In this document: positions 9,074 through 39,668 of the stretch, piece after piece | Layout: each line of letters begins with the position of its first letter | Position numbering within the stretch: position 1 is the first letter of the stretch | Assembly: GCA_017999915.1 (NCBI GenBank) | Contig: JAGNKX010000006.1 | Location: 64,077-128,076, forward strand | Direction: 5' to 3' | Origin: Spirochaetota bacterium | GTDB lineage: Bacteria; Spirochaetota; UBA4802; UBA5550 | Length of the DNA stretch: 64,000 bases | Notes under the pieces: generated by a model | Seen by the model: the letters and a program-made list of their open reading frames with translations, nothing else | The model's database searches: none | Told to the model about the DNA's origin: nothing | Position numbers and translations under genes: made by a program

Positions 9074-9248
9074 CCCTCACCCCCCGGCCCCCTCTCCCAT
9101 TTAAAATTGAAAAAAGGAGAGGGGGTGCATTAAAAAGAGCCCTCTCCTTTTTCCCGAACTTCATGGGAGGCAACATCTTGTACATCCATGTACGATGCTG
9201 CATGCGCGACATCCTGTCGCTTAGTGCGCGCCGAAGGCGGGGTGAGGG
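9074..9248. mobile_element. MITE-like repeat, copy A. Terminal inverted repeats are CCCTCACCCC...GGGGTGAGGG, with a CCCTCTCC/GGAGAGGG internal hairpin.
   Basis: The terminal inverted repeats were read directly. A near-identical core recurs at 27545-27667. A spurious ORF on the minus strand (MKFGKKERALFNAPPLL...) recurs with it. Confidence 0.6.
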
Positions 9249-19537: not shown

Positions 19538-19676
19538 ACTGTTTCCTCTCCAGTCAATGATTTGGATCTACCGATTTTATTTGCCCATAATCGAACAGAG
19601 CAATAAACAGGCAGGAATTAGATCGTTTATAATAAGTAACTCGGGTCAGGTGTTTTTTAATATAAATAAATAACAA

Positions 19677-19914
19677 CGAATTTGATATCTCATTTTTTCG
19701 ATGTGATATATAATAGAATACTTTAATTTATCCTAAAACGAGCAAAACATGGATGTTTTGCGTTAAGCGAGGATGGTCGCCGACGTGGTTTTGACATCCT
19801 GTCAATGTCGGCACTGCCAACCTCCTGTTGGCAGCAGATGGACCCTCCGCAGCAAAACAAACGATTACAAATAGCTCTCTAACGAAACGAGTAAAAAATG
19901 AGATATCAAATTCG
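19677..19914. mobile_element. 238-bp element bounded by perfect 22-bp terminal inverted repeats CGAATTTGATATCTCATTTTTT. The GC-rich core carries several hairpins. It may be a MITE, an invertible DNA segment or a structured RNA.
   Basis: The terminal inverted repeats are at 19677-19698 and 19893-19914 (exact reverse complements). The core hairpins are GACAT-CCTGTCA-ATGTC and CTGCCAAC-CTCCT-GTTGGCAG. Confidence 0.55.
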
Positions 19915-20004
19915 CTAATATCACATATAATAATAAAAAACGCCTGACTCAAGTAAATAATATAGAATTGTTAATAGTCGAGAAGAAATTAATCAAAAAA
20001 ATCA

Positions 20005-20055
20005 TTGACACCAGAACCCTACTGAATATAGTTCACATATTGAATATTATTCAAT
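20005..20055 (+). promoter_or_regulatory. Promoter of xsc. The -35 is TTGACA at 20005-20010, followed by a 16-bp spacer and a -10 TATAGT at 20027-20032. Two operators, TGAATATAGTTCA and ATTGAATA-T-TATTCAAT, overlap the -10 and the transcription start.
   Basis: Read directly. There is a perfect 8-1-8 palindrome at 20039-20055. The RBS GGAGG lies 8 bp before the ATG. Confidence 0.55.
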
Positions 20056-20080
20056 AATTTTTACCCCGCTGGAGGCTGAA

Positions 20081-21805
20081 ATGACAAAAATGACCCCATC
20101 CGAAGCATTCGTTGAATCACTGGTAGCCGAGGGAATAACCACCACCTTTGGTATCGTCGGGAGCGCCTACATGGACGCCCTGGACCTTTATCCTACGGCG
20201 GGGATACGCTTCATTTCCGTGGCCCACGAGCAGGCTGCGGCCCATGCGGCTGACGGCCTTGCCCGGGTGACCGGCAGGCCCCAGACCTGCATCGCCCAGA
20301 ACGGGCCCGGCGCCGCAAACTTCATATCCGCCATAACCGCTGCCTTCTGGGCCCATTCGCCGGTGGTGGCCATCACCCCGGAGACAGGCAGCATGGGCAT
20401 CGGCACCGGCGGGTTCCAGGAGCTCGACCAGATGCCCTGGTTCGAGAAATGCACCAAGTTCCAGGTCCGGGTAAACCGGCCCGAGCGGATGGCGGAGCTG
20501 ACCCGCCGCTGCTTCTACATGGCAAAGCTCCTGTCCGGCCCGGTGCAGCTCAACATCCCCCGGGACTTCTACTATGGCGATTTGGACTGCGAGATATTCA
20601 AATCGGGCGACGTCAATTACGGCAGCGGCCCCGAGGGTCTGATCAAGAAAGCGGCGGAGCTCCTGGCCAAAGCGAAGAACCCGGTCATCCTCGCCGGCGG
20701 CGGCGTATCCATGGCCAACGCCATTGATGAGACAAAGGCCCTGGCGGAGTACCTTACCTCGCCGGTGGTGAACACCTATCTCCATAACGACACATTCCCG
20801 GCGGCCCACGAGCTGGCCGTGGGCCCCATCGGCTACTGCGGGTCCAAGGCGGCCATGCGCTCCATCGCGAAGGCCGACGTGGTCCTGGCACTGGGAACGC
20901 GCCTGGGGCCCTTCGGCACGCTGCCCCAGTACGACATAGCCTACTGGCCAAATTCGGCGAAGCTCATCCAGGTCGACATCGACGGCACCCAGCTGGGCGT
21001 TTCGAAGAGGATCGACCTCGGCATCGTGGCCGACGCGCGGGAGTTCGCCCTGCAGCTCCTGAAGGCCCTGAAGGCCGTCGACGGGAGCCGTCAGAAGAAC
21101 ACGGCCCGCCTGGCCGATATCGCGAAGGAAAAGGCCGCCTGGAAGGAGGAGCTCGATTCCTGGTCCTCCTCGACCAACAAGCTGATGCACCCGCGCCGCT
21201 TCATCAAGGAGCTCACCGACGCCATTCCCGACGGGTCCATCGTGGCCACGGACATCGGCAATAATTCATCAATTTGCAACAGTTACCTGAAGTTTACCGG
21301 ACCGCGCCAGCACATCTCGGCCCTCTCCTGGGGGAACTGCGGCTTCGCCTACGGGGCCGCCATGGGCGCCAAGATAGGGGCCCCGGGCACGCCGGTCTTC
21401 GCCCTCCAGGGCGACGGCGCCTACGGCATCAGCGGCCTCTCGGAAGTGATGACCGCGGTGCGGGAGAACATCCCCGTCATAGCGGTGGTCTTCAACAACC
21501 ACGAGTGGGGCGCGGAGAAAAAGAACCAGATCGACTTCTTCAAGAGCCGCTTTGTCGGCGCTGATTTATTGACGAACCCGGACTACGACCAGGTGGCGAA
21601 GGACATGGGCGCCGTCGGCTTCAAGGTGGAGAACTACGCCGACGTGAAGGACGTCGTCCGCGAGGCGGTGAAGTGCGGCAAGCCCGTGGTCATCAACGCG
21701 GTGATCGAGGGCGGCGAGAAGGTCCTGGCGGAGCCGTTCCGCCGCGACGCCTTCAAGCCGGCGGTGCGCTACCTGCCCAAGTACAAGCACCTGAGCGCCG
21801 TGTAG
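20081..21805 (+). CDS. xsc: Sulfoacetaldehyde acetyltransferase (ThDP-dependent); produces acetyl phosphate and sulfite.
   Basis: 574 aa. It has Xsc-specific stretches (GTGGFQELDQMPWFE, NIPRDFYYG, HNDTFPAAHELAVGPIGYCGSKAAMRSIAKADVVLALGTRLGPFGTLPQYDIAYWP). These match characterised Xsc far better than generic ALS. Confidence 0.85.
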   Translation: MTKMTPSEAFVESLVAEGITTTFGIVGSAYMDALDLYPTAGIRFISVAHEQAAAHAADGLARVTGRPQTCIAQNGPGAANFISAITAAFWAHSPVVAITPETGSMGIGTGGFQELDQMPWFEKCTKFQVRVNRPERMAELTRRCFYMAKLLSGPVQLNIPRDFYYGDLDCEIFKSGDVNYGSGPEGLIKKAAELLAKAKNPVILAGGGVSMANAIDETKALAEYLTSPVVNTYLHNDTFPAAHELAVGPIGYCGSKAAMRSIAKADVVLALGTRLGPFGTLPQYDIAYWPNSAKLIQVDIDGTQLGVSKRIDLGIVADAREFALQLLKALKAVDGSRQKNTARLADIAKEKAAWKEELDSWSSSTNKLMHPRRFIKELTDAIPDGSIVATDIGNNSSICNSYLKFTGPRQHISALSWGNCGFAYGAAMGAKIGAPGTPVFALQGDGAYGISGLSEVMTAVRENIPVIAVVFNNHEWGAEKKNQIDFFKSRFVGADLLTNPDYDQVAKDMGAVGFKVENYADVKDVVREAVKCGKPVVINAVIEGGEKVLAEPFRRDAFKPAVRYLPKYKHLSAV

Positions 21806-21824
21806 GCCGCTGCCGGGAGGGGCG

Positions 21825-23018
21825 ATGAAGGTCCTGGTGATCAACGCGGGAAGCAGTTCCCTGAAATTCCAGGTCCATGACGGAGACGCCGGGGCCATGG
21901 TCGTCAAGGGCCATTACCTCGATATCGGCGAGACCTCCGCGGACCGCGCCTGCGTGCGGAAGATAACCGCTCGGGGCGCGGAGGAGAAGACGGAGATGGC
22001 GGTCAGGGACCACCGCTCCGCCATCCTTGACATGCTGGGGCTCCTCGAATCGAGGGGCGCCGCTTCCGGCCGGTGCGGCATCTCCGCCGTCGGCCACCGC
22101 ATCGTCCACGGCGGCGAGCGCTACAGCGCGGCCGCGCGGATCACGGCGGACGTGCGGGACTACCTCGAGTCGATATCGTTTCTCGCTCCGCTCCATAATC
22201 CAGTCGGCCTCGCCTGCGTCGACGAGATCGCGGCGTCGCTGCCGGACCTGCCGCAGTACGCCATCTTTGACACGGCCTTTCACCGGACCATCCCGGAGAC
22301 GGTCTACCTCTACGGGCTCCCGATGGAGCTCTACACGAAATACGGCATACGGAAATACGGCTTCCACGGCACCAACCACAAGTACGCGGCGCACCGGGCC
22401 GCGGAGATCATGGGCCGGGACATAGCCTCCCTGAGGATCATAACCTGCCACCTGGGCAACGGCCAGAGCGTCTGCGCCGTGAAACGGGGTCAGAGCGTGG
22501 ACACCTCCATGGGGTTCACCCCCCTGGAGGGCCTGCCGATGGGGACGCGGAGCGGCTCCTTCGACCCGGCCATAATCTTTTTCCTGATAGACCAGGGCTA
22601 CGAACCGGACGAGATCAGGACCATGGTCAACAAGCGGTCCGGACTCCTCGGCGTGTCCGGGATCAGCAGCGACTTCAAGGTCCTGGAGGAGAGGGCGCGG
22701 GGCGGGGATGAAAACGCCAAGCGTGCCGTCGATATGCTCGCCAACCGCATCACCTGCCTGATCGGAGCCTACACGGCGGAAATGTCCGGGGCCGACGCCA
22801 TCGTGTTCACCGGCGGCATCGGGGAGAATTCGGCGTTTTTGCGGAAGGAAGTTCTGGGCGCCCTGGCCCATACGGGCCTCGCCGTCGACGACAGGGCCAA
22901 TGAGGCCCATGATGAAGTGATCACCGCGCCGGGAAGCGCGGTCACGGCCCTGGTGATACCCGCGGACGAGGAGCTTCAGATCGCGCGGGAAGTGATCGGG
23001 GCGATCGAGGGACAATGA
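21825..23018 (+). CDS. ackA: Acetate kinase.
   Basis: 397 aa. It has MKVLVINAGSSSLKFQ and HRIVHGG motifs. It is 19 bp after xsc with its own RBS. Confidence 0.9.
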   Translation: MKVLVINAGSSSLKFQVHDGDAGAMVVKGHYLDIGETSADRACVRKITARGAEEKTEMAVRDHRSAILDMLGLLESRGAASGRCGISAVGHRIVHGGERYSAAARITADVRDYLESISFLAPLHNPVGLACVDEIAASLPDLPQYAIFDTAFHRTIPETVYLYGLPMELYTKYGIRKYGFHGTNHKYAAHRAAEIMGRDIASLRIITCHLGNGQSVCAVKRGQSVDTSMGFTPLEGLPMGTRSGSFDPAIIFFLIDQGYEPDEIRTMVNKRSGLLGVSGISSDFKVLEERARGGDENAKRAVDMLANRITCLIGAYTAEMSGADAIVFTGGIGENSAFLRKEVLGALAHTGLAVDDRANEAHDEVITAPGSAVTALVIPADEELQIAREVIGAIEGQ

Positions 23019-23361
23019 TACCAGGAGATGTCAGATAGAGACTTTTCGGTACGAATACCAGGGTCTTTGAAATTTCAACGGGCAAAAGGAAACCTCGCAG
23101 TCGCAGAGGGGATCGCCCTGGGGCGGAGGGGACTGGTCCTGTCCCCCGCTTCTATCCCTGACCCACCGGGCGGCCTCTTCCTCGGTGTCGGCGAACCCGG
23201 CGCTGAAAATAATCTCGCTTTTGCAGTGCCGGTAGCCATAGATAAGCTCATATCGTTCCTTCATGGCTGGTCGATTTCTCCCCTGGTTTCCTCGATCAAT
23301 ATCCCCGGGAAGAGCTTCCGGTAAACAATGCTTCTTTTATCGACACCGGGCCCTTTTTGTA

Positions 23362-23425
23362 TTGACAGGGGAAGAGTTGTCCGACATAGTCTCATATAAT
23401 GAATATTATTCATAATATGAATATA
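23362..23425 (+). promoter_or_regulatory. Promoter of the SDR operon. The -35 is TTGACA at 23362-23367, followed by 17 bp and a -10 CATAGT (there is also a TATAAT at 23395-23400). Operators are ATGAATA-T-TATTCAT at 23399-23413 and an extra ATGAATAT half-site at 23418-23425.
   Basis: Read directly. It has the same TGAATA-T-TATTCA core as the xsc operator. Confidence 0.5.
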
Positions 23426-23517
23426 ATTTATTGCAAGCAGTTTATTATGGCAGCGGCAAAAAAAGCGAAAATCCGGGTTGTGCGGCATCGACGGCATGAC
23501 CCTTCAGGAGAACAATC

Positions 23518-24354
23518 ATGATGACAGATCTCAAAGGAAAGACGGCCCTGGTCACCGGGGCCGGAAAAAAGACCGGCATGGGCTATGCCATGGCGCGCAA
23601 GCTGGCCTCGTTTGGAACCAATGTAATCATTGCGGACCTGGGGGGAGCGGCCCCGGCGGGCGCCCAGGTCGCCACGGGCACGACCGCGGATATGCAGGAG
23701 ATCGCCGAGTCCCTCGGCAGGGAATTCGGCGTCAGGACCATGGCCGTACCGGTGGACGTGTCAAGCACCGAGTCCGTCGCCGCCATGGCGGAGGCGGTGA
23801 AGGGGAAATTCGACCATGTGGACATCCTCTGCAACAACGCCGGCGCCTCCTTCGGCGTCCCGGCCGCGGTCCATACCTATGACGAGGCGGCGTGGATGAG
23901 GACCGTGGACATCAACCTCCACGGCGTCTTCCGGGTCTCCCGGGCCATGCTTCCCCTCATGCTGGGAAAGCCGGCCAGCATCGTGAACAACGCCTCGCGG
24001 GCCGGCAAGTTTCCCCCGGTCATGAACGGGGCCTACGCGGTGGCCAAGGCCGGGGTGATCATGCTCACCAAGGTGATGGCCAAGGAGCTGGCCGGAGCCG
24101 GCGTGCGCGTCAACGCCATCTGCCCCGGCCAGATCATGACCGACCTGGAGCGGTGGCGCTTCGGGCTGGAGGCGAAGGTCTTCCAGACGACGGCTGAGGA
24201 GCGCGAGAAGGAGATGTGCAAGACGATACCCCTGGGACGCATCGGCACCCCGGAGGAGGTGGCGAACCTGACGGCGTTCCTCGCCTCGGAGGCGTCGTCG
24301 TACATGACCGGCCAGGCGATCAACGTCACCGGCGGGCAATTAATGGAATTGTAA
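23518..24354 (+). CDS. SDR-family oxidoreductase (FabG/IsfD-like).
   Basis: 278 aa. It has TGAGKKTGMG, NNAG and YAVAK motifs. Confidence 0.85.
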   Translation: MMTDLKGKTALVTGAGKKTGMGYAMARKLASFGTNVIIADLGGAAPAGAQVATGTTADMQEIAESLGREFGVRTMAVPVDVSSTESVAAMAEAVKGKFDHVDILCNNAGASFGVPAAVHTYDEAAWMRTVDINLHGVFRVSRAMLPLMLGKPASIVNNASRAGKFPPVMNGAYAVAKAGVIMLTKVMAKELAGAGVRVNAICPGQIMTDLERWRFGLEAKVFQTTAEEREKEMCKTIPLGRIGTPEEVANLTAFLASEASSYMTGQAINVTGGQLMEL

Positions 24355-24380
24355 GATATTGATATCACCCCCGCCGCAAT

Positions 24381-24403
24381 CCTCCCCCATCAAGGGGAGG
24401 AGG
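24381..24403. repeat. REP-like GC hairpin CCTCCCC-CATCAA-GGGGAGG.
   Basis: Read directly. It belongs to the same family as the hairpins at 45194-45215 and 45274-45294. Confidence 0.5.
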
Positions 24404-24456
24404 TCGCGGGAACAAGATAGTGTATAGTAAGAATAAACAATCTCAGGAGTGTTAAC

Positions 24457-26151
24457 ATGGAAAAGATGATCGGCGGAAGACTTGCCGCGGAAGCCCTTAT
24501 AGAACGCGGCGTGAAGTATATTTTTACCATAAGCGGCGGACACATAACCCCGGTTTATGAATTTCTCGAGAATACCAGCGTGAAGCTGTTTTGCACGCGC
24601 CACGAGCAGGCGGCGGTCTTCATGGCCGAAGCCATGGCGCGCATGACGCGGCAGCCCGCCGTGGCGATGGTGACCGCGGGGCCCGGCTTCACCAACGCCC
24701 TCACGGGGATCGCCAGCGCCCGCCTCGCCAACGCGCCGGTCATTCTCATCTCGGGCATCGTGGGTCTGGAGATGTCGGAGAAGCTTGACCTCCAGGACAT
24801 GGTCCAGCTCCCCGTGATCCAGCCGATGGTGAAAAAGGCCCTGGTGTGCAACAACGTCGAGCGGATACCTGAATTCATCGATATGGCCTTCCGGTACGCC
24901 ATGCAGGGGCGTCCCGGACCGGTGTACCTGGAGATACCCGTGGACGTGCTGAACGCGAAGCCCGACATGGGCAAGGTAAAGAAATACCAGAGCACCATCG
25001 TGTCGAAGACCGTGGACACGGCGGCGGCGGAAAAGATCGTGGACATGCTCGGCCAGGCGAAGAAGCCGATCGTCATAGCCGGGAGCGGCGCCTGGTGCGC
25101 CGACGCCGGTCCGGAGCTCGTATCGTTTGTCGAGAAGACGGGAATGCCCGCCATGACCATGGCCGGCGCCCGCGGCCTTATCCCCGACACGCACCCACTC
25201 TGCTTTGAATCGGCCCTGGCCATCCGGCCGGGGGCGGCCCTGGTGGCCGACACCCAGGCGGACCTTGTCCTCTTCCTCGGATCGCGTCTGAGCCTTTTTT
25301 TCATTTTCGGGGGCATCTTCAACCCGAACGCCAAGTTCATACAGGTCGACATCGAGGCGGAGGAGATCGGACGGAACCGTTCCGTGGACCTCGGCGTGGT
25401 GAGCGATATCAAGATGCTGCTGGCGGAGATCAACCGGATCATCGACGCCCGGAAGCTCGGGCCGTCCCTCGTGAAGCAGTACGCGGAATGGGTGGAGGCG
25501 GTCAAGGCCGCGGACGCCAACGGCAAGGCCCAGGCGAAGCCGATGTGGGAAAAGGAGGGAGCGCCGATCCATCCGATGCGGCTGGCCCATGAGATCAACA
25601 AGTTCATGGACCGCGAGGACGACATCGTCGTGGCCGACGGCGGGGACACCACCACCTGGATGGGGATGACCCGCACCGTGCGCCGGCCGGGGCATTATCT
25701 CGATTACGGCCTCTTCGGCAGCCTGGCCGTGGGCATACCCTACGCCAACGCGGCCAAGCTCATCAATCCGGACAAGCGGGTTCTCCTGGTCATCGGCGAC
25801 GGGGCCGCGGGATTCAACTTCATGGAGTTCCACACCGCCATCCGGCACAACATTCCGATCGTGGTGGTCGTGGCCAACGACACCCTCTTCGGCATGATCG
25901 CCCACAGCCAGCAGATCCGCCTCGGCCACGCCATCAAGGACGGGACCGACCTGGGCATGGTCAATTACGAGAAGATGGTGGAGGCACTGGGCGGCTTCGG
26001 CGCCTTTGTCGACAAGCCAGAGGACATCCGGCCGGCCATCGAGGCGGCCTTCAAGTCCGGCAAGACCGCCTGTATCAACGTGATGGTCGATCCGTCGACG
26101 ATCAGTCCGGGCAGTGTGGCCCTGGCCAACCTGGGGGCGTACAAGGCCTAA
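24457..26151 (+). CDS. ThDP-dependent enzyme of the 2-hydroxyacyl-CoA lyase / oxalyl-CoA decarboxylase (HACL/Oxc) subfamily.
   Basis: 564 aa. YIFTISGGHITPV, RHEQAAVFMAEAMARMT...AGPGFTNALTG and GRPGPVYLEIPVDVL align with HACL1/Oxc rather than with Xsc or ALS. Confidence 0.65.
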   Translation: MEKMIGGRLAAEALIERGVKYIFTISGGHITPVYEFLENTSVKLFCTRHEQAAVFMAEAMARMTRQPAVAMVTAGPGFTNALTGIASARLANAPVILISGIVGLEMSEKLDLQDMVQLPVIQPMVKKALVCNNVERIPEFIDMAFRYAMQGRPGPVYLEIPVDVLNAKPDMGKVKKYQSTIVSKTVDTAAAEKIVDMLGQAKKPIVIAGSGAWCADAGPELVSFVEKTGMPAMTMAGARGLIPDTHPLCFESALAIRPGAALVADTQADLVLFLGSRLSLFFIFGGIFNPNAKFIQVDIEAEEIGRNRSVDLGVVSDIKMLLAEINRIIDARKLGPSLVKQYAEWVEAVKAADANGKAQAKPMWEKEGAPIHPMRLAHEINKFMDREDDIVVADGGDTTTWMGMTRTVRRPGHYLDYGLFGSLAVGIPYANAAKLINPDKRVLLVIGDGAAGFNFMEFHTAIRHNIPIVVVVANDTLFGMIAHSQQIRLGHAIKDGTDLGMVNYEKMVEALGGFGAFVDKPEDIRPAIEAAFKSGKTACINVMVDPSTISPGSVALANLGAYKA

Positions 26152-26161
26152 AGCATAATGA

Positions 26162-26197
26162 CGCCATGGGCGCGCTAATGTGTGCGCGCCCATGGCG
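26162..26197. other. Perfect 14-bp GC-rich stem CGCCATGGGCGCGC-taatgtgt-GCGCGCCCATGGCG between the ThDP and MFS genes.
   Basis: Read directly. There is no U-tract, so it is a processing, attenuation or protein-binding structure rather than a classical terminator. Confidence 0.45.
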
Positions 26198-26241
26198 GAT
26201 AATATATCAATACAAGGTTATCATATTCCACAGGAGGTATT

Positions 26242-27534
26242 ATGATGAACGGTCAAAGCGGTACCCATGAATACAAATTATCCAGGGGGTATACGAACTA
26301 TGTTTTCATCCTCCTGTTCCTCCTCTACTTCTTCGACTACGTGGACCGCATGGTGGTCACGTCGCTCTTTCCCTATATCAAGGAGGAGTGGGCCATCTCC
26401 GACGCCCAGTGCGGCATGCTGGTGTCCGCCATCTACTGGTCCATTATCATATTCACCATTCCGGCGTCGGTGCTGGTAGACCGCTGGAGCCGGAAGAAGA
26501 CCATCGGACTCATGGCGGTCATCTGGAGCATCGCCACCGCCGTGTGCGCCCTTACCAAGAATTTCGGCCAGCTCTTTGCCGCGCGGGGCGTCATCGGGGT
26601 GGGCGAGGCCGGGTACGCGCCGGGCGGCACCGCCATGCTCGCGGGCCTCTACCCGGAGGAAAAGCGGTCGAGGATGATGGGCATCTGGAACGCCTCCATA
26701 CCGCTGGGAAGCGCCGTGGGCATAGCCCTGGGCGGCATTATAGCCAAGGAGTTCGGATGGCGCCACGCCTTCGGCCTGGTCGCCCTGCCGGGCCTGATCG
26801 TGGCGATCCTCTTCTTTTTCGTCAAGGATTACAAGACCGTGGAGCTGGTCAAGACCGCGGATGTTGGCGGTTCCAAGGTCGCCATGAGCAAGATGGACAT
26901 ATTCAGGGAATTCATCCACACCCCGTCGCTCATCTTCACCTATTTCGGCTTCGCGGCCATGACCTTCGTGACCACGTCGCTCATCACCTGGCTCCCGACC
27001 TTCTTCCACCGCGTCTATGAACTGCCCATGGACCAGGCGGGAATGAAGGGGGGCTCGGTAATGCTCCTTGCGCTGGTGGGCGCGCCGGTGGGCGGGCTCC
27101 TCGCGGACCTGTGGCTGAAGAAAAGAAAGAACGCCCGCCTTGTGTTCTCGTCGATCGTGGCGGTCCTTTCCGCGATCTTTCTCGGATCGGGGCTGCTCTT
27201 CTTTACCGGCAACATGCAGTACGTACTCATACTGCTCATGGGCCTGGTGGTGGTCGCCTTCGTGCCGGCCGCGGCCGCGGTGACCCAGGACGTGGTGCAC
27301 CCCGGACTCCGGGCCATATCCTACGCCCTGTGCGTCATAGTGCAGAATCTTCTGGGCTCTTCCATGGGGCCCATCGTGGTAGGCTCCATTTCCGACGGCT
27401 ATAACATACAGACGGCCCTCTCCATTCTGCCGATATTCCTGCTCGTCGCGGCGGCGCTTTTCTTCGTGGCTTCGTTGTTCTACGAGCGGGACCTGGACAA
27501 GGTGGAAAAGGTGACGCTGGAAGTGGAGGGCTGA
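26242..27534 (+). CDS. MFS transporter.
   Basis: 430 aa with 12 predicted TM segments. It has an MFS signature (GRWSRKKT, GVGEAGYAPGG). Confidence 0.8.
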   Translation: MMNGQSGTHEYKLSRGYTNYVFILLFLLYFFDYVDRMVVTSLFPYIKEEWAISDAQCGMLVSAIYWSIIIFTIPASVLVDRWSRKKTIGLMAVIWSIATAVCALTKNFGQLFAARGVIGVGEAGYAPGGTAMLAGLYPEEKRSRMMGIWNASIPLGSAVGIALGGIIAKEFGWRHAFGLVALPGLIVAILFFFVKDYKTVELVKTADVGGSKVAMSKMDIFREFIHTPSLIFTYFGFAAMTFVTTSLITWLPTFFHRVYELPMDQAGMKGGSVMLLALVGAPVGGLLADLWLKKRKNARLVFSSIVAVLSAIFLGSGLLFFTGNMQYVLILLMGLVVVAFVPAAAAVTQDVVHPGLRAISYALCVIVQNLLGSSMGPIVVGSISDGYNIQTALSILPIFLLVAAALFFVASLFYERDLDKVEKVTLEVEG

Positions 27535-27544
27535 GATGTGAAGA

Positions 27545-27667
27545 CCCTCACCCCCCCGTCCCCCTCTCCCATTAAAAACTGGAGAAAGGAGAGGGGGAGC
27601 ATATAGAGTAGCCCTCTCCTTTTTTCCAAGCTTCATGGGAGAGGGCGCGCCGGAGACGGGGTGAGGG
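27545..27667. mobile_element. MITE-like repeat, copy B (short version of the element at 9074-9248).
   Basis: The terminal inverted repeats are CCCTCACCCCCCCGTC ... GACGGGGTGAGGG. The CCCTCTCC...GGAGAGGG core is shared with copy A. Confidence 0.6.
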
Positions 27668-27775
27668 AAAAAAAGATTCAACGCGGAGGCGCTGATGAGT
27701 AATCCGTCCTCTGCGACTCAGCGTTGATAAAGCGGTTGATCGCACACTATTGTGAAGTGGTGAAGGTGACAAGGC

Positions 27776-28591
27776 ATGATAGAACACGAACAATTCAACA
27801 ACAAGATCGTCGCCGTGACCGGCGGGGCCAGCGGCATCGGCGAGGCGCTGTGCCGCAGGTTCGGTAAGGCCGGGGCGAAAGTGGCGGTCATCGACATGGA
27901 CGGCAGGGGCGCTGACAGGCTGGCCGGCGAGCTGAAAGACGGCGGGATCGAGGCGGCCGGGTTCGCCTGCGATGTCAGCAAGCAGAAGGAGTGCGAGGCC
28001 GTTATCGGAGCGATCATCAAGCGCTGGGGCGGCATCGACGTGCTGGCGGTGAACGCCGGGATCACCCAGCGGAGCCCCTTCGTGGACACGGACCCGGCCG
28101 TATACCGGCGCGTCATGGACATCAATTTCTTCGGGGCCCTTTATTGCGCAAAGGCGGCCATAAAAGACTTGATCGCGAGAAAGGGTGTGATAGTGGTGAC
28201 ATCAAGCCATGCCGGCTACAGCCCCCTACTCGGAAGGACCGGATACAGCGCGAGCAAGCACGCCCTCCACGGGCTCTTTGAGAGCCTGCGTACGGAGGTG
28301 AGGCCCCTGGGCGTCCATGTCATGATGGTCTGCCCCGGCTTCACGAAGACCAATCTCCAGACAAGGGCCCTCGGGTCGAACGGTACGGTGACGACGCACC
28401 CGCAGTCGAGGGTGGGCAAACAGGACACCCCGGGCCATGTGGCCGAGGCCGTGTTCCGTGGAACGGTGCAGCGCAAGAACATCATCGTGCTGACCACGGT
28501 GGGAAAGCTCACCTATTACCTGCACCGCCTGGCGCCGGCGCTGTACGAACGGCAGATGGCCAAAAAATTACGTTCGGAGATCGAACGGTAA
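27776..28591 (+). CDS. SDR-family oxidoreductase.
   Basis: 271 aa. It has VTGGASGIG, NAG and YSASK motifs. Confidence 0.85.
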   Translation: MIEHEQFNNKIVAVTGGASGIGEALCRRFGKAGAKVAVIDMDGRGADRLAGELKDGGIEAAGFACDVSKQKECEAVIGAIIKRWGGIDVLAVNAGITQRSPFVDTDPAVYRRVMDINFFGALYCAKAAIKDLIARKGVIVVTSSHAGYSPLLGRTGYSASKHALHGLFESLRTEVRPLGVHVMMVCPGFTKTNLQTRALGSNGTVTTHPQSRVGKQDTPGHVAEAVFRGTVQRKNIIVLTTVGKLTYYLHRLAPALYERQMAKKLRSEIER

Positions 28592-28600
28592 AAACAGAGA

Positions 28601-29236
28601 GTGAGACCAATGGGATCACAGGAACGCAGGGAACGGGAAAAGGAAGAGAGAAAGAACCACATCCTCAAGGCGGCGCGGACGCTTCTCCTGAAAAAAGGGC
28701 TCCACGCCACCACGGTCAACCAGATCGCCAAGCTCTCCGAGCTGAGCGTGGGCACCATATACCTCTATTACCACAACAAGGAAGATATTTTCGCGGCGCT
28801 CCAGGAGGAGGGGCTGGCAATGCTGAACGACCAGATAGGGAAGGCCGTGGCGGCGGCGTCCTCCCCGAAGGAGAAGATCAAGGCGGTCGCCCTGGGGTAT
28901 CTCGAGTTCAGCGAAAAGCAGAAGAACTACTACGACATCATCACCTATTTTCTATCGACGCCGGAGCAGCTTTTTCCGCCGCGCCTGAAGAACAGGGTCG
29001 ACAAGACCGGCGGCAGGATCCTCGGCTTCTGCACCGAGGCGATCGAGGCGGGAATGAAGTCAGGCGAATTCAGGAAGGTCAACGCGCGGCGCCACACCAT
29101 CTGGCTCTGGGGCATGCTCCACGGCCTGATCCAGTTCAGGAAGATGGAGAAGACCATCCTCCAGAAAGAGAGCTACACCTCCCTGGTGCAGTACGCCCTC
29201 GAGAATTACCTGAAGACCCTGGCCCCGGAAAAGTAA
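28601..29236 (+). CDS. TetR-family transcriptional regulator.
   Basis: 211 aa. It has an HTH (ATTVNQIAKLSELSVGTIYLYYHNKEDIF). It is 9 bp after the SDR. Confidence 0.8.
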   Translation: MRPMGSQERREREKEERKNHILKAARTLLLKKGLHATTVNQIAKLSELSVGTIYLYYHNKEDIFAALQEEGLAMLNDQIGKAVAAASSPKEKIKAVALGYLEFSEKQKNYYDIITYFLSTPEQLFPPRLKNRVDKTGGRILGFCTEAIEAGMKSGEFRKVNARRHTIWLWGMLHGLIQFRKMEKTILQKESYTSLVQYALENYLKTLAPEK

Positions 29237-29263: not shown

Positions 29264-30865
29264 TTAAAGGTCCCACTTGATGATAGGGGCCTTGACGTCC
29301 ACCATGGCGTTGACGATGAGCTCGACGAGCCCGCCGTAGGCCATCCCCGATTTTTCCCGTACCCCGTAATAATCGAAGAGGTCCCTGATCTGTCCCTTGC
29401 AGTTGGAGCAGGGAGCGCACAGGTATTTTTTTGTATCCGGACCGGGGCAGTCGGCAAAGGCCTCCAGTATCTGCCGGAGCTTCATCCTCCCCGCCACGCT
29501 CACACGCCAGTCCCGGAAGTTGTTCTGGCCCATAATGGCGAAGCCGCTCCCGCCGCCGCAGCAGTAGTTATCCGCGCCGTGGGGCTCCATCTCGCGGAAC
29601 TGCGGGCAGAGCTTCCGGATGATGCGGCGCTGGGGCTCCACGATGCCCAGGTTCCGCACGATGTTGCACGGGTCGTGGAGGGTCACCGGGAAGTCGTTCT
29701 TCGACGGGTCGAAGGCGATCCGGCCGCCCATGACGATCTCCTCCAGGAAGGTGAGGGAGCTCTCCCGGGGGATGTTCAGGTCTCCGGTGAGGATGCGGTC
29801 CGCTATGGTTATCAGGGCCTTGTGGGCGTGGCCGCACTCGCCGAGAATCACTTTCTTGACCTTGAGCTTCTTCGCGGCCTCCATGTGCTTCATCACGATG
29901 CGGGAGAGCTGCACGTCGTCGTAGAAGAGGCCGTAGTTCACGCTGTCGTAGGCGGGTGCCTCGGACGACAGGGTCCAGCTCACGCCGGCCGCGTTCAGGA
30001 TGATGGCGAAGGCGGCAGGATTCTCAGGCCAGGCCAGGATCTCGCCAGCGTTGTGCATGAGGAGCACGTCGGCGCCCTCTTTGTCCCAGGGCGTTTCGAT
30101 GGTTATGCCCAGCTCCTCGGACAGGTCCTCGTCGAGGAAGTCGACGTTGTCTTTCACCACGTTCGGCTTCATGCCGGTGGATGATCCGACCGCGAGTTGG
30201 AGCACAGTTCCCTTCTCGTGGAGCTCCTTCGGCGCCCAGCCGAGCTCCTGGCTGAAGAGCTTGCGGAGCTCCCTGGTCACCAGGGCGTTGTCGAGGCCCA
30301 TGGGGCAGGCCTGGGCGCAGCGCCGGCAGAGGGTGCACCGGTATGAAAGCTCGTAAAGGCGGCTCACCGCGGTCCAGTTCAGGTCGATATCCTCGAGCCT
30401 GAGCTTCGCCATGATCCCGCCGCCGGGTCTCGCGTATTTTTTAACCAGCCGCCGGAACACCTCGGAGCGGTACGTGGGGCGGTAGATCTCGTTCCCGCCG
30501 CTTTCGCGGTAGATCGGGCAGGCCTGGGAGCAGGTCTGGCACCGGGCGCAGTAGTCTATCGTGAGGAGGAGCGGCTGGAGGAAGGTCCAGTTGTTCTCCC
30601 GCGATAGGAGCTTTTGGAGCCCGGCGATGAAAGCTTCGACGACGCGCCGCTCATCGGCCGCGTCCTTCGGCTTCGGAAGGGAGAGGGCCGCCACGCCGTC
30701 GAGGTCGCAGGCAATGGTGTTGCGCTGGTCGTCGCTGAGCTTTTTCCATCCGGGCTGGTCCTCGATCCGGTCATAGGGAGGCGGGAGGGGAAGGAGGTCG
30801 TTGACGTTTATCTCGGTGAGGGGCGCCTCGCCCCTGCTTATATCTTTGATCCCTGTTTTTTTCAT
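29264..30865 (-). CDS. DsrK/HdrD-like iron-sulfur protein (paralog). It has two ferredoxin CxxCxxCxxxCP motifs plus a C-terminal CCG domain.
   Basis: 533 aa. It has CARCQTCSQACP, CTLCRRCAQACP and ...YCCGGGSG. It is a paralog of the DsrK at 34085-35710. Confidence 0.7.
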   Translation of the reverse strand: MKKTGIKDISRGEAPLTEINVNDLLPLPPPYDRIEDQPGWKKLSDDQRNTIACDLDGVAALSLPKPKDAADERRVVEAFIAGLQKLLSRENNWTFLQPLLLTIDYCARCQTCSQACPIYRESGGNEIYRPTYRSEVFRRLVKKYARPGGGIMAKLRLEDIDLNWTAVSRLYELSYRCTLCRRCAQACPMGLDNALVTRELRKLFSQELGWAPKELHEKGTVLQLAVGSSTGMKPNVVKDNVDFLDEDLSEELGITIETPWDKEGADVLLMHNAGEILAWPENPAAFAIILNAAGVSWTLSSEAPAYDSVNYGLFYDDVQLSRIVMKHMEAAKKLKVKKVILGECGHAHKALITIADRILTGDLNIPRESSLTFLEEIVMGGRIAFDPSKNDFPVTLHDPCNIVRNLGIVEPQRRIIRKLCPQFREMEPHGADNYCCGGGSGFAIMGQNNFRDWRVSVAGRMKLRQILEAFADCPGPDTKKYLCAPCSNCKGQIRDLFDYYGVREKSGMAYGGLVELIVNAMVDVKAPIIKWDL

Positions 30866-30868
30866 TAT

Positions 30869-31765
30869 CTATTTCCCCTGAGCGATATCGATCCAATTTT
30901 TTGAGCCCTCCGATCCGACATGGGGAGCGGACCATCGGACCGGTTGGCCGAGCAGCTTTTTTATCTTCTCTTCAGCGGCCGCGTCCATGGGGCTATCGTC
31001 CCAGAGGACGCTGTGAAAGGTGAAGAATTTCGCGGCAAAGTGCCTCATGGAGGTGAAGGGAAGCACGGCCAGGAAGAAGAGGACCGCGCCGATGTGCGCC
31101 GCCCCTGCCCGTGACAGTGAAATATGCGAATCGGCCCTGAATACCGCTTCGATGAAGTCCCTGATCTGGGAGGCCAGGTCGCCGTCCGCGACCAGGGAGG
31201 ACACGCCCGTGGCGAAAAGGGCCAGCAGGATGATCAGGTTCAGGTAGGCCGAGATCCCGGAGTAGGAGCGGAGGTCCCGGCGCACCGCCCGCAGCACCAG
31301 CAGCGACAGTGACCCGGCGAGGCCGAAGAGGTAGCCAATGGTGCCGAGGAAAACGGCTATTCCTTCGAGGAAAGCCGCGGCGGAAGAGAACCCGGCCGCG
31401 TCGACAGCGGCGGCGGCCGCCAGGCACAGCGCCATGAAGAAGATGAAGTAGATGCCGCCATGGAGGGCCATCGAAAAGGGCCAGAGCCGCCTGTGTCCCT
31501 TCCATACGGTGTGGAGAAGGAAAATTTCCTTCATCATATAAATGATTTCATGAATTATGGAGCGCTCCCGGGGCTTCATCCACCAGTCCTGCACCTCGAA
31601 ATAAGAGCCTCCGTAGGATGAGCCGGCCCTGTCATGGGGCACCGGCGCGAGCTCCCACCGGAGATGGGCCGGTAGGCGGGCGATGCGGACAATGCACGCC
31701 GCGATGCCTGCGATGAAGATTGCGATAGATGAGTAAGCGGCAATGAGCCAGATTGTTCCGTTCAT
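30869..31765 (-). CDS. DsrM/NarI-like membrane cytochrome b (paralog); the likely partner of the preceding DsrK-like gene.
   Basis: About 299 aa from the internal MNGTIWL start, which has an RBS. It is a polytopic membrane protein. Confidence 0.6.
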   Translation of the reverse strand: MNGTIWLIAAYSSIAIFIAGIAACIVRIARLPAHLRWELAPVPHDRAGSSYGGSYFEVQDWWMKPRERSIIHEIIYMMKEIFLLHTVWKGHRRLWPFSMALHGGIYFIFFMALCLAAAAAVDAAGFSSAAAFLEGIAVFLGTIGYLFGLAGSLSLLVLRAVRRDLRSYSGISAYLNLIILLALFATGVSSLVADGDLASQIRDFIEAVFRADSHISLSRAGAAHIGAVLFFLAVLPFTSMRHFAAKFFTFHSVLWDDSPMDAAAEEKIKKLLGQPVRWSAPHVGSEGSKNWIDIAQGK

Positions 31766-31782
31766 GGGTCCTCCAGGGTGCG

Positions 31783-32931
31783 TCAATCTCTCCGCCGCAC
31801 CGCGGCTGTTATCTTGAAGAGCAGGGTAAGGATGAAAAGCCCCGTTGCCCACACGCCGAGGGTGATGAATACTTCGGCCAGGGTGGGCCGGTACGACGGT
31901 ATCTTCTCGAGGGGATCGGGGATGAATCCTCCCACCACGAAGCCGAGGCCCTTCTCGATCCACACGGAGGCGAACACGGCGATGGCCGCGATAAGAAGGC
32001 CCGCGTCGCGCCGCCGCGCCGGCGTGTAGAGAATCGCCAAGGCGGCGACTGCCAGGGCTATGGAAATCCACATATAGGGCGTGAGCGACGAGGGATCACC
32101 CCAGCCCCAGAAGAGCCGCTCCAGCGGCGCCCGGTGCGTGGGGATGCCGCTGTAGAGGGCGGTGAATATTTCGAGAATAATGAAAAAGACATGGGCGCTG
32201 AAGGCGTAGGTGATGATGGTCCCCAGGGAGCGCTCGGGCCGGTCGCCCGGGTCGAAATCCGTATAGCGCCGCGCCACGCGGCAGAGCACGATGAGGAGGG
32301 CCGGGCCGGAGGAAAAGGCCGACGCCAGGAAGCGCGCCGCCGTGATGGCCGTGAGCCAGAGGTGCCGCCCCGGGAGCCCCGCGTACAGGAAGGCGGTCAC
32401 GGTGTGGATGCTGATCGCCCAGGGGATCGACAGGTAGATGACCGGCTTCACCCAGGCGGGCGGCGGCGTTCCCCGGTGCTCGGCCGTGAGGACCGTCCAC
32501 CCGATCAGGATGTTGATTACCAGGTATAGGGAAAGGACCACCGTGTCCCAGAACATGGGGGACGTCGGCGACGGATAGAGTATGACGTGGAGTATCCGGA
32601 AGGGCTGTCCCAGGTCGACGAAGATAAAGAGAAGGCACATGACGACCGCGGACACCGCCAGGAATTCCCCCAGGATCGTGATCCTGCCGAAGGCCCGGTG
32701 GTCGTGGAGGTAGTAGGGGAGCACCACCGTCACGGCCGAGGCGGCCACGCCCACCAGGAAGGTGAACTGGGCGATGTAGAGGCCCCAGGACACGCTCCGG
32801 GACATGCCGGTAACGGAAAGACCCTCTGTTGTCTGTTTAAAGTAAAAGAATATCCCCGCTGCGATGAAGAGGCCCAGTGCCAGGAGAAGGAGCCAGTAGC
32901 GCCGCGGGCCATGGAACACTTTTTCTATCAT
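31783..32931 (-). CDS. dsrP: DsrP (NrfD/PsrC-family integral membrane subunit).
   Basis: About 382 aa from MIEKVFHGP (GAGG RBS upstream). It has 10 predicted TM helices and the NrfD family pattern. It is the last gene of dsrMKJOP. Confidence 0.75.
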   Translation of the reverse strand: MIEKVFHGPRRYWLLLLALGLFIAAGIFFYFKQTTEGLSVTGMSRSVSWGLYIAQFTFLVGVAASAVTVVLPYYLHDHRAFGRITILGEFLAVSAVVMCLLFIFVDLGQPFRILHVILYPSPTSPMFWDTVVLSLYLVINILIGWTVLTAEHRGTPPPAWVKPVIYLSIPWAISIHTVTAFLYAGLPGRHLWLTAITAARFLASAFSSGPALLIVLCRVARRYTDFDPGDRPERSLGTIITYAFSAHVFFIILEIFTALYSGIPTHRAPLERLFWGWGDPSSLTPYMWISIALAVAALAILYTPARRRDAGLLIAAIAVFASVWIEKGLGFVVGGFIPDPLEKIPSYRPTLAEVFITLGVWATGLFILTLLFKITAAVRRRD

Positions 32932-32938
32932 GGAATCC

Positions 32939-33709
32939 TCACAGGAGATAGTATACGGCCGGGTCGGTCCCGAGCTCCGGTTTTCGCCGGAGGGCGATCC
33001 TTCCGGCCAGTGCCTTCCGCACCGCCGAGGCGCCATCGCGGAGGTCGCCGAAGGCAATGGCCTTTTCACCGCAGGCGGACGCGCACAGGGGCTCCTGGCC
33101 GCGGTCGACCCGCTCCGCGCAGAACTCGCATTTTTCCACGGTCCCCTTGGTGCGGGTCGGGTAGTCTTTATTGATAGATTGCTTCGCCAGGTATTTTCGC
33201 GGGTCGCTCCAGTTGAAGCTCCGGGAGCCGTAGGGGCAGGCAGCCATGCAGTAGTGGCAGCCGATGCAGCGGTGCTGGTCCATCATGACGATGCCGTCGC
33301 CGCGCTTCCAGGTCGCGCCGGTGGGGCACACCCGCACGCAGGGCGGGTTCCCGCACTGGTTGCAGAGAAGCACCGGTTTCGCGCCGCGCAGTTCCCCGCC
33401 GGAAAAGTCGTCCAGGACGCCGGGCATGGCGCGCTCCAGGTCGTCCCGCCAGATCCAGGCGATGGCCCGCTTCACGTCCGGTATGGCCGGCACGTTGTGG
33501 CCCCGGTGGCAGGCGTCGACGCACTTCTCGCACTGCCCCGCCTTCAGGCAGGCCCGGAGGTCCACCGCCATGGCGAGGCGTTTTCCGGCCGGCGGCGCGG
33601 TTTCGGCGCCGAGGGCTTTGCCGGCCATGATCTCGAAGGAGGCGCCGCCGAATATGATGATGCCGGTGCGCCAGGCCTTTCTCAGGAATTCAAGCCGTGT
33701 CAGTTCCAT
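32939..33709 (-). CDS. dsrO: DsrO (periplasmic FeS ferredoxin-like subunit, PsrB/HmcB family).
   Basis: 256 aa. It has multiple 4Fe-4S motifs (CNQCGNPPCVRVCP, CIGCHYCMAACP, CEFCAERVDRG). It has an N-terminal Tat-like signal. Confidence 0.75.
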   Translation of the reverse strand: MELTRLEFLRKAWRTGIIIFGGASFEIMAGKALGAETAPPAGKRLAMAVDLRACLKAGQCEKCVDACHRGHNVPAIPDVKRAIAWIWRDDLERAMPGVLDDFSGGELRGAKPVLLCNQCGNPPCVRVCPTGATWKRGDGIVMMDQHRCIGCHYCMAACPYGSRSFNWSDPRKYLAKQSINKDYPTRTKGTVEKCEFCAERVDRGQEPLCASACGEKAIAFGDLRDGASAVRKALAGRIALRRKPELGTDPAVYYLL

Positions 33710-34092
33710 GGTCCCCGCTCCGATGTGTCGATATGGCAGTCAAAGCAGGCCGGTGCCGACCCCAGGGCGGTGTGGCAGCGGTCGCAGAAATTTTCTTTTT
33801 TAGCATGGCATTTGAGGCAGGAGCCGCTGAGGCTCTTCTCGTACTGTTTGCCGCCGATTGTCACGGCGCTGCGGACGCCCTTCCGCACGACATCGTCGCG
33901 CCATTGAAAGAGGAGGGTCATGTGGTTCGCCCTCATCTCCGACGCGGGGAGGACGCATTCTTTTTCAACGGCGGGCTTTTCCGGCGCCGGCGATTTTTTC
34001 TTCGCGCCGCGCAGGACGTTCCACCAGAAGGGCGCCCCCACCAGGGCGGCGACCAGGGTCAATGCGGCGGCCGTCTTTATTATCCTACTCAT
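33700..34092 (-). CDS. dsrJ: DsrJ (periplasmic triheme cytochrome c).
   Basis: 130 aa with a signal peptide. It has three CxxCH motifs (CLKCH, CDRCH, CFDCH). Confidence 0.8.
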   Translation of the reverse strand: MSRIIKTAAALTLVAALVGAPFWWNVLRGAKKKSPAPEKPAVEKECVLPASEMRANHMTLLFQWRDDVVRKGVRSAVTIGGKQYEKSLSGSCLKCHAKKENFCDRCHTALGSAPACFDCHIDTSERGPWN

Positions 34093-37192: not shown

Positions 37193-37221
37193 GGTGTGAT
37201 TGTGCGGCCGGAGGCGTCCCG

Positions 37222-37262
37222 TGTCAATTAAAAAATGAATGGTATTCATTTTTTAATTGACA
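37222..37262. promoter_or_regulatory. 41-bp near-perfect palindrome TGTCAATTAAAAAATGAATG-G-TATTCATTTTTTAATTGACA, a divergent dsr promoter/operator. It has TTGACA -35 hexamers on both strands flanking a central AAAAAATGAAT-GGT-ATTCATTTTTT inverted repeat.
   Basis: Read directly. On the plus strand, TTGACA at 37257-37262 is followed by 16-17 bp and TAGATT, with the RBS GAGGAGG before dsrA. On the minus strand, a mirrored -35 is followed by 17 bp and CACAAT. Near-identical copies lie at 42317-42349 and 44098-44135. Confidence 0.6.
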
Positions 37263-37319
37263 TTCAGTGAATGGCCCCTAGATTGGTGATATCGATATTA
37301 AATTTTGAGGAGGTGACCC

Positions 37320-39566: not shown

Positions 39567-39628
39567 CGCCGGCAAGAAAATCCCCCGGGCCTTTGTTCGG
39601 GGTTTGTATAGAGCAAAGAATTATGCGG

Positions 39629-39661: not shown

Positions 39662-39668
39662 CTTGTTA

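Follow-up and report, generated by a model that had tools for sequence, protein, structure and literature searches.

We analyzed a 64-kb stretch of DNA from a Spirochaetota bacterium (64,000 nucleotides of contig JAGNKX010000006.1, assembly GCA_017999915.1; hereafter the window) and focused on the adjacent genes for sulfoacetaldehyde acetyltransferase (Xsc) and acetate kinase (AckA), the genes directly downstream of them and the dissimilatory sulfite reductase (dsr) locus in the same window. The results indicate that this region probably belongs to a single regulon for sulfonate respiration in a Spirochaetota-lineage anaerobe that has not been cultured. For the core of the pathway, comprising Xsc, AckA and the Dsr proteins, we regard the assignment as highly likely on the basis of family membership and of the precedent set by Taurinivorans muris. 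In this core, Xsc would convert sulfoacetaldehyde and phosphate to acetyl phosphate and sulfite, AckA would use acetyl phosphate and ADP to form acetate and ATP, and DsrAB, DsrC, DsrMKJOP and DsrN, which are encoded 6-20 kb downstream, would reduce sulfite to sulfide in a membrane-coupled process. One palindromic operator type would link the promoters of xsc, dsr, a chemoreceptor gene and SDR1, a short-chain dehydrogenase (SDR) gene downstream of ackA.

Identification of Xsc and AckA

The xsc gene (20081-21805, + strand) encodes a 574-aa protein that exceeded the cut-offs of both curated Xsc models, with 749.6 bits against 676.4 for TIGR03457 and 830.9 bits against 620 for NF005713. The thiamine diphosphate (ThDP) motif GDG-X25-NN was found at residues 444-473, and the cofactor-activating glutamate was residue 50 within an HEQ motif. 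In contrast, all acetolactate synthase (ALS) models failed: the best reached approximately 355 bits against a cut-off of 866, the ALS cut-offs ranged from 538 to 976, and every model was 180-600 bits short. The pyruvate oxidase and oxalyl-CoA decarboxylase (OXC) models were likewise far under their cut-offs. By family, the protein is, as the original prediction had proposed for the product of the gene at 20081, a bona fide Xsc (EC 2.3.3.15), and not ALS; the curated hidden Markov model scores ruled out the ALS identity. A wider alternative, in which the 574-aa protein is ALS or some other ThDP enzyme, draws on the three-domain ThDP fold that the protein has in common with ALS and on the fact that there is no solved Xsc structure to compare (the best PDB match was BbmA, with 232 bits). 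It is extremely improbable in view of the model scores and of the gene context, as a gene for an ALS small subunit was not observed in the vicinity and the acetyl-phosphate-consuming AckA is encoded next to the protein.

The ackA gene (21825-23018, + strand) encodes a 397-aa acetate/propionate-family kinase that scored 432.9 bits against 293.4 on TIGR00016 over residues 1-391; the specific equivalog models for the propionate and acetate kinase subtypes were not reached. An acetyl-phosphate-consuming enzyme encoded nearby, Pta or AckA, is the context expected of Xsc, and here ackA takes this place. The gap between xsc and ackA was 19 nt and contained a GGAGG ribosome-binding site. This agreed, positions included, with the earlier claim that ackA lies 19 bp downstream on the same transcript. 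Because ackA is almost certainly co-transcribed with xsc, acetyl phosphate can yield ATP directly. Neighbor counts for AckA and for the SDR1-ThDP2 pair, SDR2 and TetR described below were taken over 63 evaluable Xsc-related loci. Related loci in general are labeled L003, L004 and so on where they need to be told apart. AckA adjoined Xsc in 28 of the 63, so the Xsc-AckA pairing is common in anaerobes.

The 25 closest Xsc loci (80-94% identity) were nearly all from metagenome-assembled genomes (MAGs) labeled Spirochaetota, Leptospirales or Leptospiraceae. The next tier (69-80% identity) was mostly from Desulfobacterota, including the cultured Desulfatibacillum alkenivorans DSM 16219 and Desulfatitalea alkaliphila, and the Xsc proteins of Desulfovibrio-labeled MAGs (L047 and L059) were 71-74% identical to that of the window. 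The relatives of DsrB formed a matching Spirochaetota group. The host belongs to a Spirochaetota MAG lineage, which the original prediction had not recognized.

The dsr locus and its linkage to xsc

The original prediction had placed a complete dsr set (dsrAB, dsrC, dsrN and dsrMKJOP) 14 kb away, and we found every one of these genes, with 14.3 kb between the ackA stop codon and dsrA. On the + strand, dsrA (37320-38486) scored 560.5 bits against 392.9 on TIGR02064 and dsrB (38508-39566) scored 493.9 bits against 341.5 on TIGR02066. The dsrMKJOP operon (31783-37249, - strand) was identified from family models, CxxCH motifs and a gene order identical to that in L087. It contains dsrM (35688-36683; 384 bits against 300), dsrK (34085-35710; 698 bits against 400), dsrJ (33700-34092; three CxxCH motifs), dsrO (32939-33709; 262 bits against 200) and dsrP (31783-33069; 437 bits against 350). 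Also on the - strand were dsrN (40490-41905), which matched the CobB/DsrN-type amidase family, and dsrC (41933-42250), whose 105-aa product scored 131 bits on the Pfam DsrC model, above Pfam's cut-off. The DsrC C-terminus reads C-X10-CV (PKPTGCV), so that both conserved cysteines are present. Compared with the enzyme of Archaeoglobus fulgidus, DsrA reached 554 bits, and with those of Desulfovibrio and Desulfomicrobium 445-457 bits; this likeness to solved enzymes of sulfate and sulfite reducers points to a reductive type.

Upon comparison with related loci, we found the xsc island to be physically linked to dsr genes in L006, L011, L013, L015 and L085, with dsr lying within 10 kb of xsc in the last four. 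In L087, a homolog of the TetR gene of the window's island lies next to dsr. The review of Diao et al. (PMC10591310) already includes Spirochaetota MAGs that have dsrAB.

Several further genes accompany the dsr locus. A carbon-nitrogen hydrolase gene of the nitrilase superfamily (39669-40493, - strand) overlaps the end of dsrN; the trio of this gene, dsrN and dsrC recurs in L087, and the hydrolase may take part in siroheme amidation. A conserved open reading frame (ORF) without a family (36680-37249, - strand) heads the dsrMKJOP operon; it is listed as 189 aa and is probably approximately 170 aa long. An ORF of 168 aa occupies the matching position in L087. Directly downstream of dsrP we observed a second pair (29264-32071, - strand), consisting of a DsrK-like gene (29264-30865) and a NarI/DsrM-like gene (30869 to approximately 31770). 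The DsrK-like product scored 315 bits against 400 on the DsrK model and its partner matched Nitrate_red_gam; the pair is kept in L087 and L006. Two related Spirochaetota loci encode a weakly DsrD-like ORF of 66 aa after dsrB (L015, 20825-21022; L088, 11082-11282), which scored 17.7 bits against 24.2 on PF08679, and no DsrD-like ORF was present after dsrB in the window (39567-39668) or in L087.

A putative palindromic operator at the xsc, SDR1, dsr and chemoreceptor promoters

The palindrome TGAAY-N2-TATTCA (operator type TGAAT-N3-ATTCA) was found in six places in the 64 kb, all of them promoter regions. The exact pattern TGAAYNNTATTCA gave eight strand matches at these six sites, compared with 0.01 expected in a 64-kb window. 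The promoter-like site of xsc, TTGACA-16-TATAGT (20005-20053, + strand), was the strongest in the region, with 11 of 12 matches; its TTGACA box begins at 20005, the left coordinate that the original prediction had given to the unit. Two operators, 20023-20035 and 20041-20053, lie 18 bp apart and overlap the -10 box and the likely transcription start, and this operator stretch was the only part of the xsc upstream region conserved in L003-L015. A similar arrangement was found at the promoter-like site of the SDR1 operon, TTGACA-17-CATAGT (23362-23430, + strand), where one exact operator copy and a degenerate second copy 18 bp away (23400-23412 and 23418-23430) lie just past the -10 box. Relatives keep the operator upstream of SDR1 or ThDP2.

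Between the promoters of dsrM and dsrA, which are divergent, lies the perfect palindrome GTCAATTAAAAAATGAAT-GGT-ATTCATTTTTTAATTGAC (37223-37266), which has an operator (37236-37248) at its center and -35-like TTGACA boxes on either side, and which is kept upstream of dsrA in L087. The dsrC promoter (42317-42359, - strand) carries the operator TGAACGGTATTCA (42335-42347) 6 nt upstream of TTGACA. The last site (operator 44116-44128 within an operator/-35 module at 44098-44140) precedes a gene for a methyl-accepting chemotaxis protein (42413-44026), gene and module together spanning 42413-44140 on the - strand. The dsr intergenic, dsrC and chemoreceptor sites have a 42-nt module in common, in which the operator stands 6 nt upstream of TTGACA. 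The sequence suggests that chemotaxis is co-regulated with sulfite respiration. With linkage in relatives and a rare palindrome in common, the predicted coupling between xsc and dsr is stronger than the original prediction could know.

Judged by position, the operator looks repressor-like at xsc and SDR1, where it covers the -10 box or transcription start, and activator-like at dsrA/dsrMKJOP, dsrC and the chemoreceptor gene, where it lies just upstream of the -35 box. One sulfite-sensing regulator could give feedback control, and two paralogous regulators are equally possible. The TetR-family protein encoded downstream (28601-29236) is one candidate for a repressor acting at xsc and SDR1. We set aside a Rex or Fur site, whose half-site spacing we take to be different. 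In L024 (20030-20980), tandem operators at 20539 and 20557 were observed upstream of a 155-aa ORF, glyoxalase/VOC-like by eye, and an SDR gene. This locus adjoins a second copy of a small Cys-rich ORF described below and may be an additional regulon member in L024.

The conserved module downstream of ackA

The original prediction had drawn the unit as 20005-23018. Its gene placement was accurate, but its extent was too short, as it omitted a conserved downstream module (23031-29236). The first gene of this region (23031-23264, - strand) encodes a small Cys-rich protein of 77 aa without a Pfam family; it is convergent with ackA and divergent from SDR1. Its Cys and His residues are conserved (YELIYGYxHC ... 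C.C..SFCPxKFQRP), and homologs occur in the same island in L003-L007, L010-L015, L085, L027 and L024/25. SDR1 (23518-24354, + strand), a classical short-chain dehydrogenase of 278 aa, matched SDR families, none at cut-off, and is proposed to be a sulfonate 2-hydroxy dehydrogenase. In most module loci it is directly upstream of ThDP2.

ThDP2 (24457-26151, + strand) is a second ThDP enzyme, of 564 aa, from the clade of 2-hydroxyacyl-CoA lyase (HACL), OXC and benzaldehyde lyase (BAL), and we propose that it makes sulfoacetaldehyde. TPP_enzyme_N, M and C domains are present in the single protein, with the ThDP motif at residues 447-475. All of its best models remained under cut-off (399 against 587; 335 against 600 for HACL; 307 against 557 and 286 against 739 for OXC). 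As a single three-domain protein, ThDP2 is not of the ComD/ComE type, which has two subunits or is fused; it may nonetheless have that activity. ComDE is shorter than ThDP2 and has no middle domain.

Downstream of ThDP2 is a gene for an MFS anion transporter of 430 aa (26242-27534, + strand), D-galactonate/ACS-like with 177 bits on TIGR00893, below cut-off, and proposed to be a sulfonate importer; in other loci an SBF-family transporter occupies its position, which is a non-orthologous swap. SDR2 (27776-28591, + strand; 271 aa) scored 287.8 bits against 215 on NF004825 and was found in 34 of the 63 Xsc loci, often directly upstream of xsc; in L085 a Zn-dependent alcohol dehydrogenase takes its place. 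The TetR-family regulator (28601-29236, + strand) begins 9 nt after SDR2, matched Pfam TetR_N and, weakly, a Bacillus FadR-type TetR, and was present in 18 of the 63 loci.

SDR1 and ThDP2 accompanied Xsc in 27 of the 63 loci, and at least three gene orders were seen for the module. We also examined independently sampled orthologs of ThDP2 (70% identity) on contigs labeled Smithellaceae or Deltaproteobacteria, which lay beside Xsc in all three loci sampled. These clusters read ackA-xsc-SDR1-ThDP2-(SBF or MFS)-(SDR2 or Zn-dependent alcohol dehydrogenase), and one of them (L085) directly follows dsrMKJOP-like genes. Their Xsc proteins scored 835-847 bits on TIGR03457 and were only 50% identical to that of the window. 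The module spans loci labeled Spirochaetota, Desulfobacterota and Syntrophales/Smithellaceae, with two Xsc subgroups. Because the Xsc partners are only 50% identical across these subgroups, the module appears tied to Xsc function and not to one inherited operon. In a second variant of the cluster, an ALS/decarboxylase-like ThDP enzyme stands in for ThDP2 and an extended SDR for SDR1, and SBF, SDR2, Xsc and AckA are kept.

These distributions bear on a rival explanation in which Xsc, AckA and Dsr are correctly read, but the SDR1-ThDP2-MFS-SDR2-TetR genes form an unrelated catabolic operon, for example for acyloins or 2-hydroxy acids. The source of sulfoacetaldehyde would in that case be taurine or isethionate, via enzymes encoded elsewhere, or isethionate via SDR2 alone. 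This explanation would accommodate several observations: neither ThDP2 nor the SDRs could be assigned to a sulfonate-specific family, the close Spirochaetota loci L009, L016-L018 and L021 have xsc-ackA without the module, and no partner stands directly beside xsc more often than SDR2. An SDR-type sulfoacetaldehyde reductase (IsfD) is known, which also counts in its favor. We nevertheless consider an unrelated operon unlikely, as the module accompanies two Xsc subgroups in several lineages and several gene orders and as its promoter has the tandem operator in common with that of xsc.

At the edge of this comparison, two of the three sampled ThDP2 contexts, L083 and L086 (11.7-14.4 kb), showed an opposite-strand gene for a pyridoxal phosphate-dependent decarboxylase (MfnA/GAD-like) and a DUF819 membrane protein gene after the module. 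L086 has a PF03601 (YeiH-type) membrane protein gene upstream of ackA, and one of these two loci has a Smithellaceae-named protein.

Proposed origin of sulfoacetaldehyde

The genes directly downstream of ackA, and not taurine, would supply sulfoacetaldehyde to Xsc. That they form it from a C3 sulfonate is a tentative proposal, drawn from conserved linkage and from the general chemistry of ThDP enzymes and SDRs. The anion transporter (MFS here, SBF elsewhere) would take up a hydroxylated C3 sulfonate, and SDR1 and SDR2 would oxidize the 2-hydroxy group, perhaps with one enzyme per enantiomer. In the favored version, the SDRs would convert sulfolactate to sulfopyruvate, from which ThDP2 would release sulfoacetaldehyde and CO2. 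A route from 2,3-dihydroxypropane-1-sulfonate (DHPS) would fit too, because the ThDP2 clade suits acyloin-lyase-type cleavage: a 2-oxo intermediate would be cleaved in this way by ThDP2 with release of a C1 aldehyde or formate, and the route would be redox-balanced with the six electrons of sulfite reduction.

A CoA-dependent version was also compared, in which ThDP2 is a true 2-hydroxyacyl-CoA lyase that splits sulfolactyl-CoA into formyl-CoA and sulfoacetaldehyde. The best solved relatives of ThDP2 are indeed HACL and OXC, with 245-260 bits, and the best solved match of SDR2 is a 3-hydroxyacyl-CoA dehydrogenase. Upon inspection of the alignment, the HACL/OXC/BAL enzymes (PDB 8VZC, 6XN8 and 2AG0) had the same three-domain ThDP architecture as ThDP2 and were approximately one third identical to it. 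In contrast to these enzymes, ThDP2 was under every curated cut-off, well under it for the HACL and OXC models, and reads LQD where they have the FQE motif; the second cluster variant, moreover, puts an ALS/decarboxylase-like enzyme in its place. No CoA ligase or CoA transferase gene recurred with the module in the clustered Xsc loci and the three annotated ThDP2 contexts, which makes a CoA-dependent route unlikely, and for the lyase as such we put the probability very low.

A literature search found no described SDR plus ThDP route to sulfoacetaldehyde. Two candidate analogs were discarded: PDB 8Y7S/8Y7R, taken as a paired SDR-ThDP study, proved irrelevant, as 8Y7S is an engineered benzaldehyde lyase, and the ThDP enzyme of the Desulfococcus biacutus acetone pathway belongs to a gene cluster that depends on a B12 mutase, of which there is none here.

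Evidence for and against one regulon

Several observations weigh against the reading of the region as one sulfonate-respiration regulon. We did not find dsrD in the 64-kb window with a search limited to two probe sequences (a D. vulgaris sequence and the DsrD-like ORF of L088) and a motif regular expression. According to Diao et al. (PMC10591310), some Spirochaetota MAGs carry reductive and others oxidative sets of dsr genes. Within this 64-kb window, to which the check was confined, the matches to the scanned ORFs included none of sat, aprAB, qmo, tpa, ald and islAB. The contrasting operator placement at xsc and at dsr could point to two distinct regulators. Where a locus has just Xsc and AckA, the operator is retained with no TetR gene within 10 kb, which also weakens the case for TetR as its sole regulator. 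As for the module, the nearest characterized relatives of ThDP2 use CoA esters or benzoin, not sulfopyruvate, and the substrates given for ThDP2, SDR1 and the MFS protein are guesses, because none of them reaches a curated family cut-off.

The first two of these points also favor an alternative in which dsr is oxidative or disproportionating and its proximity to xsc incidental, with sulfite being detoxified or excreted and energy gained by fermentation, as in Desulfonispora. The presence of the module without dsr nearby in L083 and L086 (labeled Smithellaceae or unnamed) fits this alternative as well. We consider it improbable, since DsrA is highly similar to solved enzymes of sulfate and sulfite reducers, the matches to the scanned window ORFs included no DsrEFH or DsrL family, and one operator is common to the xsc and dsr promoters. 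In addition, the xsc-dsr linkage recurs in relatives, and L087 has the same dsr arrangement beside its TetR homolog.

Repeat elements and the question of a mobile island

The original prediction had described the island as bracketed by mobile-looking repeats and acquired as a unit. The repeats are real, but the evidence did not bear out this interpretation. An inverted-repeat element of 252 nt (19670-19921) lies upstream of the xsc promoter, with 29-nt arms of which 22 nt are perfect. It is present as a single copy in the window, has several internal hairpins and a folding z-score of approximately -7 on both strands, and is partly common to L007 at the same position. It could be a remnant of a miniature inverted-repeat transposable element or a structured RNA; it is not an island border. 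No Rfam family reached its gathering score in the xsc leader or in this element (the sole match was Bacillaceae-1, with 25 bits against 35), and a riboswitch or other known RNA was rejected on this basis.

The other two features are dispersed intergenic repeats. The first, a short C-rich hairpin of 42 nt (24356-24397), has an inverted intergenic partner at 45199-45240 that is 83% complementary. The second, a GC-rich double hairpin of 90 nt after the MFS gene (27552-27641) that resembles a repetitive extragenic palindrome, has an intergenic second copy at 9080-9169 that is 84% identical. The three features are mutually unrelated. The GC content was 0.60-0.65 throughout, the flanks being alike, and for the ORFs scanned between 17 and 32 kb the matches listed included no mobility-gene family. 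No tRNA gene was found in the window, and a tRNA integration site was rejected for this reason. Synteny with the window, running from TamB, cupin and DUF2804 in the flank to TetR, was seen in L003, L004 and L007 and also in L005, in which cupin was undetected. With repeats unrelated or dispersed, uniform GC content, synteny kept in relatives and no mobility-gene family among the matches listed, a mobile genomic island was rejected.

Elsewhere in the window, stretches of approximately 120 nt and 300 nt at 58658-59133 and 63514-63986 are repeated 4.85 kb apart with 77-86% identity. One copy lies in the gene for a 1494-aa hybrid sensor kinase and the other in the last ORF of the window, and they are probably paralogous domains.

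Comparison with known systems

Taurinivorans muris LT0009, described from the mouse gut in 2023, uses Xsc to desulfonate sulfoacetaldehyde, AckA to form ATP and DsrAB-DsrC to respire sulfite, with experimental support (PMC10507020), and a deep-subsurface MAG survey found xsc alongside reductive dsrAB (PMC12019592). The earlier view that Xsc and AckA in a DsrAB organism are little documented does not hold in the light of these two reports. The core logic of T. muris (Tpa-Ald-Xsc-AckA plus DsrAB-DsrC) is identical to that of the window, but there are clear differences. The window ORFs scanned gave no match to tpa or ald, nor to any aminotransferase or alanine dehydrogenase family, although such genes could lie in another part of the genome; in the window, two SDRs and a ThDP enzyme are the proposed feeder, and the transporter is of the MFS/SBF type in the window type of locus and a TRAP transporter in T. 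muris. Furthermore, xsc, ackA and dsr are clustered in the window and have an operator in common, and the host belongs to the Spirochaetota, whereas T. muris belongs to the Desulfovibrionaceae.

Bilophila wadsworthia (Tpa-SarD-IslAB plus Dsr; PMC6386719) likewise uses a sulfonate as sulfite donor for DsrAB. Its oxygen-sensitive glycyl-radical lyase acts on isethionate and forms acetaldehyde, whereas the ThDP-dependent Xsc of the window would form acetyl phosphate; the matches to the scanned window ORFs did not include islAB. Desulfonispora thiosulfatigenes obtains ATP from acetyl phosphate by substrate-level phosphorylation. This species, which ferments taurine, is a strict anaerobe that has Xsc, as the organism of the window does (cited in PMC10507020). 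That system is a fermentation in a Firmicute, whereas the window has a co-localized and apparently co-regulated sulfite reductase system linked to DsrMKJOP. Roseovarius nubinhibens reportedly degrades sulfolactate by a SlcD-ComDE-Xsc-Pta pathway. It provides the template for the proposed feeder, from sulfolactate via sulfopyruvate and sulfoacetaldehyde to Xsc, and the favored sulfolactate version would be its anaerobic analog built from non-homologous enzymes; the Roseovarius pathway, however, is aerobic and uses a membrane-bound dehydrogenase, a ComDE-type decarboxylase and Pta, where the genes of the window predict SDRs, a 564-aa ThDP enzyme and AckA.

Significance

Among the major pools of organic sulfur are sulfonates such as taurine, isethionate, DHPS and sulfolactate, which give rise to H2S in guts, sediments and digesters when they are degraded anaerobically. 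The known anaerobic routes to sulfite are mostly oxygen-sensitive glycyl-radical lyases or SuyAB, and Xsc in a DsrAB organism has one characterized case. As the idea of an Xsc-AckA-Dsr pathway is already known, the interest of the locus rests mainly on the uncharacterized, widespread feeder module and on the regulon signature. The locus adds a case in which Xsc-AckA-Dsr appears hard-wired, by clustering and a common operator, in an uncultured Spirochaetota lineage, and it reveals that Xsc in many anaerobes is accompanied by two dehydrogenases, a ThDP enzyme and a transporter that are uncharacterized.

Taken further, and with more reserve than the feeder step itself, the module and the Cys-rich protein may represent a widespread, oxygen-insensitive and undescribed anaerobic route from C3 sulfonates (sulfolactate, both enantiomers of DHPS, or all of these) to sulfoacetaldehyde, with a new ThDP enzyme unrelated to ComDE. 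This route would be wired by the operator to Xsc-AckA, Dsr and the chemoreceptor in a self-contained regulon with possible sulfite feedback. The module enzymes, soluble proteins of the ThDP and NAD(P) types, are of a kind that is usually well expressed heterologously, so that the hypothesis should be directly testable. Once assigned, the substrate of the module would define a new pathway for sulfur-cycle annotation, in which these genes are now labeled "acetolactate synthase" and "SDR".

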